From: Terriglobia bacterium
GTDB lineage: Bacteria; Acidobacteriota; Terriglobia; 20CM-2-55-15
Direction: 5' to 3'
DNA length: 64,000 bases
Assembly (NCBI GenBank): GCA_965218585.1
Contig: CBDCLE010000011.1
Span: 64,001-128,000 of the forward strand
Below the pieces are notes generated by a model. The model saw nothing but the letters and a program-made list of their open reading frames with translations. It was not told the DNA's origin and did not search any database. The translations under genes and the position numbers were made by a program. Positions 40,280-43,828 of the stretch are shown in pieces. The number at the start of each line of letters is the position of its first letter. Position 1 is the first letter of the stretch.

Positions 40280-41710
40280 ATGGCTGGAATAAAGATAACC
40301 AAGCGGGCCAACGATTATTCAAGGTGGTATACGGATGTGATCGCCGCGGCCGAGCTAGCGGATCATACACCTGTTAAGGGCTGCATGGTGATCCGTCCGA
40401 ACGGTTATGCTATCTGGGAAAAAATGCAGCGGGCCCTGGACGACATGTTCAAGGAGACAGGACACGAGAATGCGTATTTTCCGTTGTTGATCCCCGAAAG
40501 CTTCCTTGCGAAAGAGGCCGAACATGTCGAGGGATTTGCGCCCGAAGTAGCGGCGGTGACTCACGCCGGAGGCGTAAAGCTGGAAGAACCTCTGGTGATC
40601 CGGCCGACTTCTGAAACGATCATCTGGCATGCGTATCGAAACTGGATTCAGTCCTACCGCGACCTTCCTATCTTGATCAACCAGTGGGCCAATGTAGTCC
40701 GATGGGAGATGAGGACGCGATTGTTTCTCAGGACGACGGAATTTCTCTGGCAGGAAGGCCATACGGCCCACGCGACTTACGACGATGCCGAGCGAGAAAC
40801 GGTGACGATGCTCGGAGTGTACCGTCGGTTTGCGGAAGAGTTCATGGCCGTGCCAGTGCTGTCGGGACTCAAGAGCGAGGCCGAGAAATTTGCAGGGGCG
40901 CATCACACCTACTCGATTGAGGCCATGATGCAGGACGGCAAAGCGTTACAGGCTGGGACGTCGCATCATCTTGATCAGGGCTTTGCGAAGGCTTTCGACG
41001 TGAAGTTTCAGAATGAAAAGGGAGAGCAGGAATATGTCTATGCGACCAGCTGGGGCGTGTCGACTCGTTTGATCGGAGCATTGATCATGGCTCATAGCGA
41101 CGACCGGGGAATCGTTCTCCCGCCCCGGCTTGCCGCGACACACGTGGTCATTATTCCGATCTTCAGAAAGCCCGAGCAACGGGCGGCGGTCATGGAGCGT
41201 GTGGATCAATTGACGGCCGGCTTCTACGGCATCGACTTCAAAGTGGACGATCGGGAACAACACAGCCCCGGGTGGAAGTTCAACCACTGGGAACAGCGAG
41301 GTGTGCCCCTGCGGATGGAGATCGGACCGAAGGATCTGGAGAAGAACCAGGTGGTTCTGGTGCGCCGGGACAACACGGAAAAGAGCTTCGTGTCCCAAGA
41401 CGGGCTCGCGGCCACAATCAGCGACGCGTTGAGCGGCATTCAGTCGGGCCTCTACCAGCGCGCGCTGGAGTTTCGTGAGGCGCACACGCAGGAAGTGGAC
41501 GATTACGGGGCCTTCAACGAGATACTCGATGGCGAGGGTGGTTTTCTCTGGAGCCACTGGTGCGGCGCTTCGGAATGTGAAGATAAGGTGAAAGCGGAGA
41601 CGAAGGCCACAATCCGCTGTATTCCCACCGAAGGTGAGGCCGAACCGGGGAGTTGCATCAGATGTGGCGAAGCGTCGGAACGCCGGGTCGTCTTTGCACG
41701 CGCGTACTGA
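40280..41710 (+). CDS. proS: Proline--tRNA ligase, archaeal/eukaryote-like type
   Basis: [39 protein letters not shown]; C-terminal Zn-binding Cys and FARAY. Confidence 0.96.
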
Positions 41711-41829
41711 TCATCCCTGTTGAAGCTTACCTATCAACGATTGTTCGTCGCGTGGTCGCCGAAGTTCGATCTTCTTAATGTTGTCGTATGTGTTGCCATC
41801 GAAGACTACGCGGTTCTATGGAAGGGGCT

Positions 41830-42200
41830 GTCAAGAGAAACACGTCCCCGCCGAGCGGACCACCGTACCCAACACTGTCGTGGCAGCCAGCCCCTGTCTC
41901 CGTTGAGACGAACTGTTGATCCGGCATCGCAGAGAAGTCGATCACTCATCACAACGTGGTGTGGTTTCGAGAAACTGAAAAGCGCAAAGGGGTCGTGATT
42001 GCCGACCACGGTTCTATCTGAGCCTCGAGGGCTATCGCTTTTCCAGGTCGTGCGAGGGGGGATAGAGTATTACATGGGCCTTCAGCAAGCGCTGTGTGCC
42101 AACCGCGTATCGGATCCTCACCCTCGACCCTACCGTTCCGACGCCTCACCGACGACGAGCGGTCGAATGCCTCGCGCTGTCGGCAGAAGTCTGGAAACGG
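41830..42200 (-). ncRNA. Candidate bridge/seek RNA of the IS110 element (boundaries approximate)
   Basis: Structured non-coding end with an 8-nt target match and 7-nt and 5-nt donor matches. Confidence 0.65.
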
Positions 42201-43262
42201 CTATGTCGCCAAGTTCAGTTTCTTTGCGTTAAACGTGTCTCCTTTCTTCCACATCTTCAGTGCGGTCGCTGCAATCTTCCTCGCCAGTGTCAGCCGAGCC
42301 ATCTCCTTACGCTTGCCGTCTTTCTGGAGCCCCTCCAGGTAGCTTTTCCAAGGTTCGGCCCCCATGCCTCCGGTCGCCGCCCCGATGAACACATCTTTCA
42401 AACGTCGGTTGCCGTTGCGGTTCAGTCCCCGCGTGGCGATCGGCTTTCGACGACGTACCACACGACTCCCTTCCTGCTCATACTCCGCACTCATGTGCAT
42501 TGCCACGGCCAGACCGCTGTAGTTCCAGAGCTGGCGTTTGGTTCGAAATCGATGCGGGGTGTCCCCCGTCGCTACAATCAAGGCGCAACGTATCGGTCCC
42601 AACTGGGGAATCGTCTGCAATATCCCCACCGCACGATGCTTGCGGCTCTCGGTTAACATCGCCAGCTTCGCTTTTTTTCTTAACCCTCTCAGATGATCCA
42701 GCTCCTCATACAACCATCCGGTACGCCGCCGTGCACCGGTATTGGCGAGCTGTTCGATCCAGTGTTCCCGCTGCGATGGGAGGTAGACGCCGTGGCCCGG
42801 CGTCCGGATCCCACGTCCTCGATACATTGCCTTGATCCGAACCATCGTCCGCTGCGTATCCAGGGTCAAGGTCTCATATCCGCGGACCAGTTCTTTCAAC
42901 GTCCGCGTCGCATCGTGCCCGTGGTAGACCGACCGCAGCCATCCGGCCCGGAGCAGCTCGGCCAGTTTCAGGGCATCCACCCGGTCGGTCTTGGACCCGT
43001 CACTGAGCAGTTTGTTCCGTCTGGGATCACACACGATCACTTCGCTCACATATCCCCGGACCACGTTGTAGAGCCATTCGGCCTGCGTGGTTTCTTCAAA
43101 CGTCACGTGCAGCTCACCACTCAGACTCTCCAGCAAATCAATGATTGGCCCGGCCTGGGTCTCTACGATCTTTTCCCAGACCAGTTTGCCGTCTGCGTTT
43201 AAGACCATCACCACCGTCGTTGCCTGGTGCACATCCATGCCGATATACTTGGCCTGTTTCAT
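42201..43262 (-). CDS. IS110 family DEDD recombinase
   Basis: YIGMDVH, TFEE, KTDRVDALKLA, IPQLGP, YSGL.....SA. Confidence 0.93.
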   Translation of the reverse strand: MKQAKYIGMDVHQATTVVMVLNADGKLVWEKIVETQAGPIIDLLESLSGELHVTFEETTQAEWLYNVVRGYVSEVIVCDPRRNKLLSDGSKTDRVDALKLAELLRAGWLRSVYHGHDATRTLKELVRGYETLTLDTQRTMVRIKAMYRGRGIRTPGHGVYLPSQREHWIEQLANTGARRRTGWLYEELDHLRGLRKKAKLAMLTESRKHRAVGILQTIPQLGPIRCALIVATGDTPHRFRTKRQLWNYSGLAVAMHMSAEYEQEGSRVVRRRKPIATRGLNRNGNRRLKDVFIGAATGGMGAEPWKSYLEGLQKDGKRKEMARLTLARKIAATALKMWKKGDTFNAKKLNLAT

Positions 43263-43828
43263 TTACGTGCTCCTTTGTCTTTGAATTCAACGCAGCTACG
43301 TTGAATGGGTTGTTGTCGGGAGATTTTCCTCCTGGCAACAGCCGACAAAGGGGCGTCCTTCCTTATAGCGTAACGCTTGCGATTGGGTCCGTGCGTGGTC
43401 AACCCCCAGAGCAGGATGGAATCCCGACTGAAGGCCATCGACAGCGATTCGCGATTTCCCGAGAAAACGGGCTCGCGGGCCACCGCCCGGAAAAGAGTCC
43501 TCGAGACGAGACGCCACATTACCAGCGGGAAAGAGTAGTTCAACCAGATCAGATGAGTAGCTCGTTCCCAGACAAGATCGCTCACCATTTGGTAGTTTCC
43601 GTCGGTGACCCATCGCTGATTCTGAGTCTGTACGTCGACCTTGGATCGAAACTCTTCCGGTGGGCGTTCTTGCCAGTCAGGGCCCCAATACAGAGCATCG
43701 AGTTCGATGTGGTGTAGATCGAGGGCATGTGCGAGGCGACGTGCGAGTACGGTCTTCCCAGAGCCGGTTGTGCCGATGATCGCGATTCGCATCACTGTTG
43801 AGGACCTTGCCGAAGAGTCAGTCTGTGA

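Follow-up and report, generated by a model that had tools for sequence, protein, structure and literature searches.

The window analyzed here is a 64,000-nucleotide stretch of DNA from a Terriglobia bacterium (Acidobacteriota; Terriglobia; 20CM-2-55-15; GenBank assembly GCA_965218585.1, contig CBDCLE010000011.1, forward-strand positions 64,001 to 128,000). A host gene in the window is interrupted on the minus strand by an insertion sequence (IS), which runs from 43371 to 41813 and has a 109-nt left end, an open reading frame of 353 amino acids (aa; 43262-42201) and a 388-nt non-coding right part (Table 1). A comparison of sequences among the copies of this element and its relatives makes it very probable that it is active and belongs to the IS1111 type of the IS110 family, with a two-loop guide RNA encoded downstream of its transposase.

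Table 1. Features of the insertion sequence and of the interrupted host gene, in positions of the window. The RNA, its parts and the promoter hexamer are predicted.
Feature	Position	Strand	Remarks
Interrupted host gene, N-terminal 141 codons	43372..43795	-	AAA-type kinase-like; weak Pfam AAA_18/AAA_33; homologues in G009 and G016
Whole insertion sequence	41813..43371	-	1,559 bp including the core dinucleotide at each junction
Left end	43357..43371	-	Core AC 43371-43370, right donor GC..., then left subterminal inverted repeat; same in 16/16 copies
Left subterminal inverted repeat	43368-43357	-	CTATAAGGAAGG; partner of 41825-41816, 2-nt indel
Candidate -10 hexamer	43362..43367	-	TATAAG; assembled with TTGACA only when the ends are joined in a circle
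Transposase / bridge recombinase gene	42201..43262	-	353 aa; Pfam and PDB sequence matches
Bridge/seek RNA core domain	42000..42127	-	128 nt; target-binding loop, then donor-binding loop
Right target guide	42102..42111	-	GATACGCGGT; 5' side of target loop; complementary to top strand ACCGCGTATC (core + right target)
Apical hairpin of target-binding loop	42075..42101	-	Sequence differs between types; helices 2 and 3 change on both sides, 4/4 pairs
Left target guide	42067..42073	-	GTAATAC; 3' side of target loop; same as top strand of left target + core
5' side of donor loop	42034..42045	-	UGGAAAAGCGAU; mirrors the right target guide; GCG opposite core C + GC
Right donor guide as originally predicted	42031..42035	-	ATAGC; last 2 loop nt + 3 nt of apical stem AGCC/GGCU
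Left donor guide	42011..42017	-	ATAGAAC; 3' side of donor loop; same as last 5 nt of right end + core
Remaining 3' non-coding region	41835..41999	-	RNA domain to right end, ~165 nt; blocks conserved in related types
Right end	41813..41834	-	TTGACA 41834-41829, repeat, left donor ATAGA, junction dinucleotide 41814-41813
Right subterminal inverted repeat	41825-41816	-	CCTTCCATAG; paired with the left-end repeat
Interrupted host gene, C-terminal remainder	41713..41812	-	In frame after one AC

The transposase contains the Pfam domains DEDD_Tnp_IS110 (PF01548, 3.4e-17, residues 7-146) and Transposase_20 (PF02371, 3.9e-09), both of which pass their gathering scores. In the PDB its sequence matches the transposases of ISCro4 (9t56, 1.6e-09) and IS621 (8wt6, 4.2e-07). 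The four acidic residues of the RuvC-like DEDD site (D10, E56, D93 and D96) line up with the ISCro4 transposase and, together with S258, are invariant across 13 aligned relatives. The serine motif in the family alignment is GLAVAMHMSA, which has GL, six residues and S-A and departs from the conserved G..P....SG type by Val for Pro and Ala for Gly; SG, TG and occasionally TA variants of this motif are on record (PMC11187229). The best matches in 72,556 plasmid records reach only 25-28% identity. A large protein collection gave 7,978 of 8,000 scored candidates at E <= 1e-20, many of them 353 aa long and 70-75% identical; these matches are mainly metagenomic and are named no further than 'transposase'. 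Residues 128-290 also give a weak match to NCBIfam NF052498, a TIGR-Tas RNA-guided endonuclease (E = 1.7e-08; 34.7 bits vs a cut-off of 100).

The genome to which the window belongs (26 contigs, 4.55 Mb) has 16 near-identical copies of the element by blastn and genome search, at 99.87-100% identity over 1557-1559 of 1559 bases. The 353-aa frame is open in all 16 copies and the sequence of the RNA domain is identical in 15 of them. The flanks vary between the copies; therefore, they are separate insertions. The original prediction, made from the window sequence, was an intact IS110/IS1111-family element, and this is upheld by the two Pfam domains and the 16 open frames. One DNA contig has a 165-nt skip within the coding region (depth 2, side 29), which was disregarded.

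The 16 insertion sites have the consensus GTAAT-AC-CGCGTAT in a single orientation. Apart from the shared core nothing is duplicated. Every copy has N5-AC-GCTATAAGG at the left junction; at the right junction CCATAGA is joined to AC (10 copies), AA (5) or GC (1), and mostly CGCGTAT comes next. The AC core originally predicted is thus constant at the left junction (16/16) and varies at the right junction. When the element and one AC are removed, the host gene becomes colinear with its uninterrupted homologues, as had been claimed for its excision. The frame directly after the right-hand AC reads RVVFDGNTYDNIKKIELR, which is colinear with the C-termini of the homologues in G009 and G016 and keeps their Y..I..I.L spacing. 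The target therefore carried one AC. Individual sites match GTAAT at an average of 3.19 of 5 positions and CGCGTATC at 5.88 of 8, so the relaxed left target proposed earlier stands at the level of single sites. Right halves are poorest at the two sites whose left half is perfect. The specificity is mostly in the right half; a weak left half is tolerated with a good right half, and vice versa. No unoccupied perfect 14-mer target is present in the genome, and four lie within two mismatches.

The non-coding region downstream of the transposase gene is 388 nt (42200-41813) vs 109 nt upstream (43371-43263). The minimum-free-energy fold of the single sequence has two internal loops in the predicted RNA domain, and the consensus fold agrees and has compensatory pairs. 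The first is the predicted target loop, which is closed by CGAGGG.G.GGAU/AUCC..CCCUCG and has the right guide on its 5' side, a variable apical hairpin, and the left guide on its 3' side. The second is the predicted donor loop, which is closed by CGACC/GGUCG and has the apical hairpin AGCC/GGCU and the left donor guide on its 3' side. Both folds place the two hairpins noticed earlier as the apices of these loops. A covariance model of the domain (R1; 128 positions, 25 pairs) matches all 16 copies plus related elements, and it finds matches in 10 of 151 genomes sampled across the phylum, counting the present one. In 30 distinct RNA sequences 94.6% of the cells are paired and 18 of the 25 pairs change on both sides; a control in which partners were slid by 1-3 columns gives at most 50.5% paired. 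A separate MAFFT alignment of ten sequences results in the same helices, with nine compensatory pairs. The downstream terminator-like hairpin GGTCGGCAATCACGACC was also considered as the partner of GGUCG and was rejected, since covariation prefers the upstream partner CGACC (L034, G048).

A protein search of 61 related genomes gave matches in 16, with the present genome counted. Several of these have multi-copy elements, with transposases that are 50-82% identical, and their junctions were defined by comparing copies (pairwise blastn). The non-coding regions of the relatives have a common scaffold and differ at exactly the proposed guide positions. The hosts of the clade are Acidobacteriota (Terriglobia, Blastocatellia, Pyrinomonadaceae), and more distant proteins occur in Pirellulales. 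A scan of named-genome contigs with the single protein found no relative, and an alignment-based scan of them found 25 loci. R1 matches nine of 23 new loci. It has no match on fourteen distant loci (Pirellulales, Phycisphaerales and others; 32-45% identity), and any RNAs there are beyond its reach.

The predicted right target guide GATACGCGGT (42111-42102) comes before the left target guide GTAATAC (42073-42067), and the order is the same in all related types. The original prediction was an RNA downstream of the gene with reversed guide order; both parts are supported, by the long downstream non-coding region and by the guide complementary to the top strand being first. The minus-strand coordinates of its four strings are also exact (TACGCGGT 42109-42102, GTAATAC 42073-42067, ATAGC 42035-42031 and ATAGAAC 42017-42011). 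The first string agrees with the covariation described below and extends to the 10 nt of GATACGCGGT. The consensus right flank of the 16 copies is AC-CGCGTAT, and their consensus left flank plus core, GTAAT-AC, is exactly the left target guide, which would pair with the bottom strand. GTAATAC had been rated as only a weak match because the left flank of the copy in the window is GCGTT; compared with the consensus, the rating is incorrect.

Both target guides change together with their targets across the related types. For these tests permutations compared cognate with non-cognate pairs of guide and flank; rows with an identical guide and flank were merged, and multi-copy types were entered with consensus flanks. 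The L084 type was left out because the right-end pattern missed it, and for the L080 type the partial second RNA copy was removed and the outer flank used. The right target guide has a mean match of 7.92 of 9 in cognate pairs vs 4.80 in non-cognate pairs (24 IS types; 0 of 20,000 permutations), and the left target guide 6.11 of 8 vs 4.16 (19 types; 0 of 20,000). A single-base contrast is given by the G007/G017 type, which is 82% identical and has the right target guide GATAAGCGGT (left guide not listed) and the site ACCGCTTATC at three loci. Its guide is one base off that of the present element and its target differs by the matching base. Other types have other guides: G002 has GCCCAAGTTG on the right and GTACTGTC on the left, for the site GGYAYTG-TC-AACTTG..; G021 has GGTATAGGC and ATATAGTC, for GTATAG-TC-GCCTATAC; and G001 has CACAAGATG and TAAATC, for CCTGATAAA-TC-ATCTTGT. 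Fresh loci, fetched after the model was fixed, gave five new types with usable flanks, and in three of them (L104, L106 and L114) the guides match on both sides. The L114 element targets a repeat family: upstream of it (~900-1190) are ~75-bp tandem repeats, each with an uninterrupted GAAACTCC-AC-GAGGCTGAAGCC, which is an empty target with a single core.

Further details of these sites and guides were observed. L024 and other G001 copies have as target a longer repetitive extragenic palindromic (REP)-like palindrome, TCAAGTCCTGATAAA-TC-ATCTTGTCGGACGTTGAGAAT, which is conserved around all copies. Related copies at L039 (G048) and L080/L085 (G098) are inserted in DNA encoding the left target guide of another copy; this DNA is by construction a left half-site plus core. 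The outcome at L080 is one complete copy and, after it, the 3' portion of a further RNA domain with a second right end. Metatranscriptome contigs (X15/X16), whose variant of the element is 95-99% similar, have two changes at 42074-42075, just 5' of the left target guide, and one metatranscriptome contig runs beyond 41810 into the flank ACCGCTTATCCGC, which is the target of the G007/G017 type.

The second loop contains a guide that follows the end of the element itself. In 16 of 17 types all 7 positions of the left donor guide agree with the right end plus core, across eight variants (ATAGAAC, ATAGATC, ATAGGAC, ATGGAAG, ATGCAAG, ATAGACG, ATAGGAG and ATAGAAG). Cognate pairs match at 6.88 of 7 positions vs 5.68 for non-cognate pairs (17 types; 0 of 20,000 permutations), which bears out the earlier assignment of ATAGAAC as the left donor guide. 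The core is AC, TC, AG or CG depending on the type, and a change of core is seen alike at both junctions and in both left guides. In every type the full core is present in the left target and left donor guides; the candidate right donor guide retains GA where the core is AC.

The right donor guide of the original prediction is not supported. Of the four guides for which a covariation check had been suggested, the right target, left target and left donor guides covary and the right donor guide does not. The prediction had ATAGC (42035-42031) pair with GCTAT, which would complete a full four-guide RNA, and in the present element, as in the L018 and L034 types, the left end opens with five bases that ATAGC complements perfectly. 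This complementarity stands, but as a guide ATAGC does not covary and is largely in a stem with covariation support. Three of its five bases form the 5' strand of the AGCC/GGCU stem, whose pairing is maintained through compensatory changes (AGUC/GACU, GGUC/GACC and AGGC/GCCU). Across 15 types it matches 5/5 only in the two whose right donor is GCTAT and 1-3/5 in the other 13 (mean 2.5/5); it is unchanged in the G001, G002, G021 and G029 (L020) types, where the right donor is GCAGT and the score is 3/5. The four-guide RNA with ATAGC is therefore improbable. By symmetry with the target loop, the right donor guide is expected on the 5' side of the donor loop, which is the likelier seat of a short guide. 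Partial complementarity of this side to the right donor is found (mean 4.2/8, best 6/8, in 15 types), and the permutation result of 5.33 vs 4.43 is confounded by kinship. A few relatives have matching right-donor changes, such as CC opposite GG (L075) and ACA opposite TGT (L080). The right donor guide is probably short, by analogy with IS621, whose right donor is 2 bp (PMC11208160). Pairing of UCUAU, which comes after the left target guide, with the left end was also considered and was rejected because UCUAU is within or beside the closing stem.

A second alternative is that the RNA only seeks the target, through its first loop, while the ATAGA-plus-core word is an internal DNA copy of the right end and the protein reads the inverted repeats. 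The word, for example as a transposase-binding site, would then track the end by homogenization at the DNA level or by shared protein recognition. An 82-nt seekRNA of ISEc11 with only target-matching segments sufficed for transposition, and the authors stress that end recognition in IS1111 elements may differ because of the inverted repeats (PMC11187229). The weak right-donor pairing in every register tried and the effect of kinship on the donor-side permutations also agree with a target-only RNA. On the other side, the word is located on the 3' side of a loop which mirrors the target loop, and both flanking stems have compensatory changes. It also includes the 2-nt core, following it through AC, TC, AG and CG with 7/7 in 16 of 17 types, and donor-complementary loop nucleotides are described in IS1111 bridge RNAs by Durrant et al. 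(PMC11208160). A target-only RNA is thus considered quite unlikely, more so than the ATAGC guide. The least credible explanation is that the matches are due to chance and that the conserved non-coding region is merely transposase-binding or regulatory, with no RNA guide. From the single sequence, the case against chance is thin. A match of at least 8 nt to either strand of the 16-nt target, in any window, is obtained in ~6% of dinucleotide shuffles of the 388-nt non-coding region (302 of 5,000), and ~0.4 matches of 7 nt to either strand of the 16-nt donor junction are expected by arithmetic, so that such a match is unremarkable; the 9-nt donor match in the shuffle analysis is the right end itself. 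The chances of 0.6% and 2.4% quoted earlier apply to one pre-specified word only and are too optimistic overall. The single-sequence observation alone is not beyond chance; the guides are judged real because of the comparison with the 15 other copies and the related elements. They covary with the flanks across ~24 types and the fresh loci, single-base switches of guide and target occur between close relatives, and the stems covary, which leaves chance very improbable.

Several results weigh against the preferred interpretation, an active IS1111-type element with a two-loop guide RNA. The NCBIfam model for IS110 family RNA-guided transposases (NF033542) covers positions 1-342 of 343 at 129.5 bits, which is below its cut-off of 140; since both Pfam gathering scores are passed, the protein is a divergent IS110 member rather than a non-member. 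The fold energy of the single sequence is ordinary compared with shuffles (z = -0.30), and an Rfam scan of 41500-43700 with E up to 10 found no matching family, only a chance snoRNA match within the coding region. The alignment behind the pair counts given above was fitted to the structure of the model itself, which favors that structure. The significance of the permutations is overstated because related IS types are treated as independent. This kinship problem is greatest for the donor, since an element inherits its ends along with its guides; neither the contrast at the right target nor the match of eight donor variants depends on such fine statistics. All readings tried give weak right-donor pairing. 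In types with a TC core the right target guide retains GU, which is a mismatch at core position 1; therefore, this position is not always paired on the right side and the IS621 rule is not fully followed. Two of the five fresh types disagree as well, with a match on the left side only in L107/L119 and on neither side in L108. Two metatranscriptome libraries contain assembled contigs of a 90-99% similar variant, including 41810-42354, and such contigs cannot show transcription, ends or strand.

L107/L119 lie within a long palindromic repeat, in one of its arms; GGGCGGGAGCGAC is found to their left, and the complement of this sequence ~40 nt to the right. The full cognate site of these elements is present, inverted, in the other arm of the palindrome.

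The ends of the element suggest how it might be expressed. The inverted repeats CTAT(AA)GGAAGG (43368-43357) and CCTTCCATAG (41825-41816) have 10 matching positions and a 2-nt indel, and in G002-type relatives the repeat is a perfect 9-mer, TATGAAAGG/CCTTTCATA. TTGACA or a near variant is found ahead of the right end in nearly all related types. If the ends were joined, TTGACA (41834-41829) as a candidate -35 would be followed by 18 nt (14 from the right end, 2 of core and 2 from the left end) and TATAAG, an arrangement that may form a junction promoter. Junction promoters are described for the family (PMC11187229, PMC11208160). A crude consensus scan found no sigma-70-like promoter ahead of the RNA on the minus strand, which fits co-transcription with the transposase. 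The joined-end arrangement fits the published idea that the mRNA and the RNA come from one junction promoter and are then processed (PMC11187229). In four sequencing runs, available as assembled contigs only, no contig joined across the element and no circle junction were found, which is not evidence of absence.

The proposed mechanism would begin with the element leaving its site as a circle, as in IS621, ISEc11 and their relatives, whose joined ends CCATAGA-AC-GCTATAA would create the TTGACA-18 nt-TATAAG promoter. By analogy with published relatives, the transposase mRNA and the RNA would be made as one transcript, and the RNA would be trimmed and bound by the protein. By sequence comparison, the 5' side of its first loop, GAUACGCGGU, is complementary to the top strand of the core plus right target, and the 3' side, GUAAUAC, is identical to that strand at the left target plus core. 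The 3' side of the second loop, AUAGAAC, is identical to the final bases of the right end with the core. One loop of the RNA could then bind the circle junction and the other a genomic site like GTAAT-AC-CGCGTAT, and S258 and the DEDD site would exchange strands at the core.

The variation at the right junction, read at 41813-41814 and in the 15 other copies (contigs C1, C2, C4, C15 and C26 of G000), may be informative about this exchange. A staggered double-strand exchange is expected to leave mismatched cores equally often on either side. All six variant cores are on the right, which by arithmetic has a ~1.6% chance under a staggered 2-nt double-strand exchange. As a lead, the left junction would have the AC of the donor and the right junction the dinucleotide of the target. 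This is expected if cleavage 5' of the core and exchange are confined to the top strand, replication then completes the process, and core mismatches are tolerated. Top-strand insertion and single-strand circles are proposed for IS110 elements (10.1101/2025.10.25.684509; 10.64898/2026.08.31.748434). The asymmetry bears on the debate between double-strand exchange and top-strand transfer; that an IS1111-type element transfers one strand asymmetrically, with this clade as the natural evidence, is suggested only tentatively and is rather doubtful.

Every architectural feature which defines IS1111 elements and is testable here is present, and the assignment is made by architecture. The inverted repeats of the IS1111 group are 7-17 bp long and lie inside the termini. 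Similar to the IS1111 seekRNA elements ISEc11, ISKpn4, ISPa11 and ISPst6 (PMC11187229), the present element has a DEDD transposase of ~340-350 aa, a downstream non-coding region and subterminal inverted repeats. It also shares with them a top-strand-complementary guide 5' of a bottom-strand-complementary guide, with overlap at the insertion point, a predicted joined-end promoter, and close relatives that were re-targeted naturally by guide changes alone (PMC11187229). In contrast to these elements, its transposase is at most 28% identical to the plasmid-borne IS110-family proteins found and has GLAV....SA without the usual Pro and Gly, and the hosts of its clade are Acidobacteriota. Bridge RNAs are predicted in 93% of IS1111 elements (PMC11208160), and seekRNAs are experimentally shown for four of them (PMC11187229).

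The likeness to IS621 and ISCro4 (PMC11208160; PDB 8wt6, 9t56) is in the two-loop RNA, with a target loop and a donor loop. In each loop the left guide is identical to the top strand and the right guide is complementary to it, a 2-nt core is common to target and donor, and pairing to the right donor is probably short. As in IS621, the donor loop is a simple internal loop; a multi-loop is described for many IS1111 RNAs. Unlike IS621 and ISCro4, the present RNA is encoded 3' rather than 5', the right guide is first in each loop, the inverted repeats are long, and the right guides pair with core position 2 and not always with position 1. ISAzs32 is among six elements with hand-inspected bridge RNAs (PMC11208160). 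The best named matches include a plasmid record annotated as 'IS110-like element ISAzs32 family transposase', with 26.5% identity over 96% in a comparison of the protein only. The present element is thus a new, divergent member of the published IS1111 seekRNA/bridge RNA family and not a new kind of system. It had been called possibly uncharacterized, which is appropriate for the clade; the mechanism class is already published. No paper on the clade was among those listed in general full-text literature searching, in which no search was aimed at the clade itself.

The known picture of the family mechanism is unchanged by this element. Its value is in a natural re-programmed series of ~24 guide sets and four cores on one 128-nt scaffold with a divergent 353-aa enzyme, which is useful for mapping the RNA positions that are free to change and offers candidate orthologues. 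Bridge and seek RNA recombinases are under development as programmable DNA-insertion tools, and those characterized are mostly from Proteobacteria and Firmicutes. If the interpretation is correct, this compact, divergent, re-targeted clade could provide programmable recombination with a new set of orthologues. The element also matters for annotation: genes are interrupted by its 16 copies, and its transposase would go unnamed under the standard NCBIfam model.

Parts of the remaining non-coding DNA of the element are also conserved. The blocks TTCAGTTTC and GGGGCTGGCTGCC.CGACA within 41835-41999 recur among related elements. The 5' untranslated part on the minus strand (43263-43356) has two hairpins, TTGTCGG...CCGACAA and TTCAACGTAGCTGCGTTGAA, which are kept in relatives such as L104; the second was scored as terminator-like on the plus strand in a scan. 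These hairpins may block read-through from outside or control translation.

One copy has an unusual right flank. At ~69267 of contig C1 in G000 (L008/L033) the flank is GCGTATT followed by CGCTATAAAGACAG..., which resembles a decayed left junction and left end at ~14 of 20 bases. The right target of this copy is displaced by one base, and the copy may adjoin the remnant of an older one.

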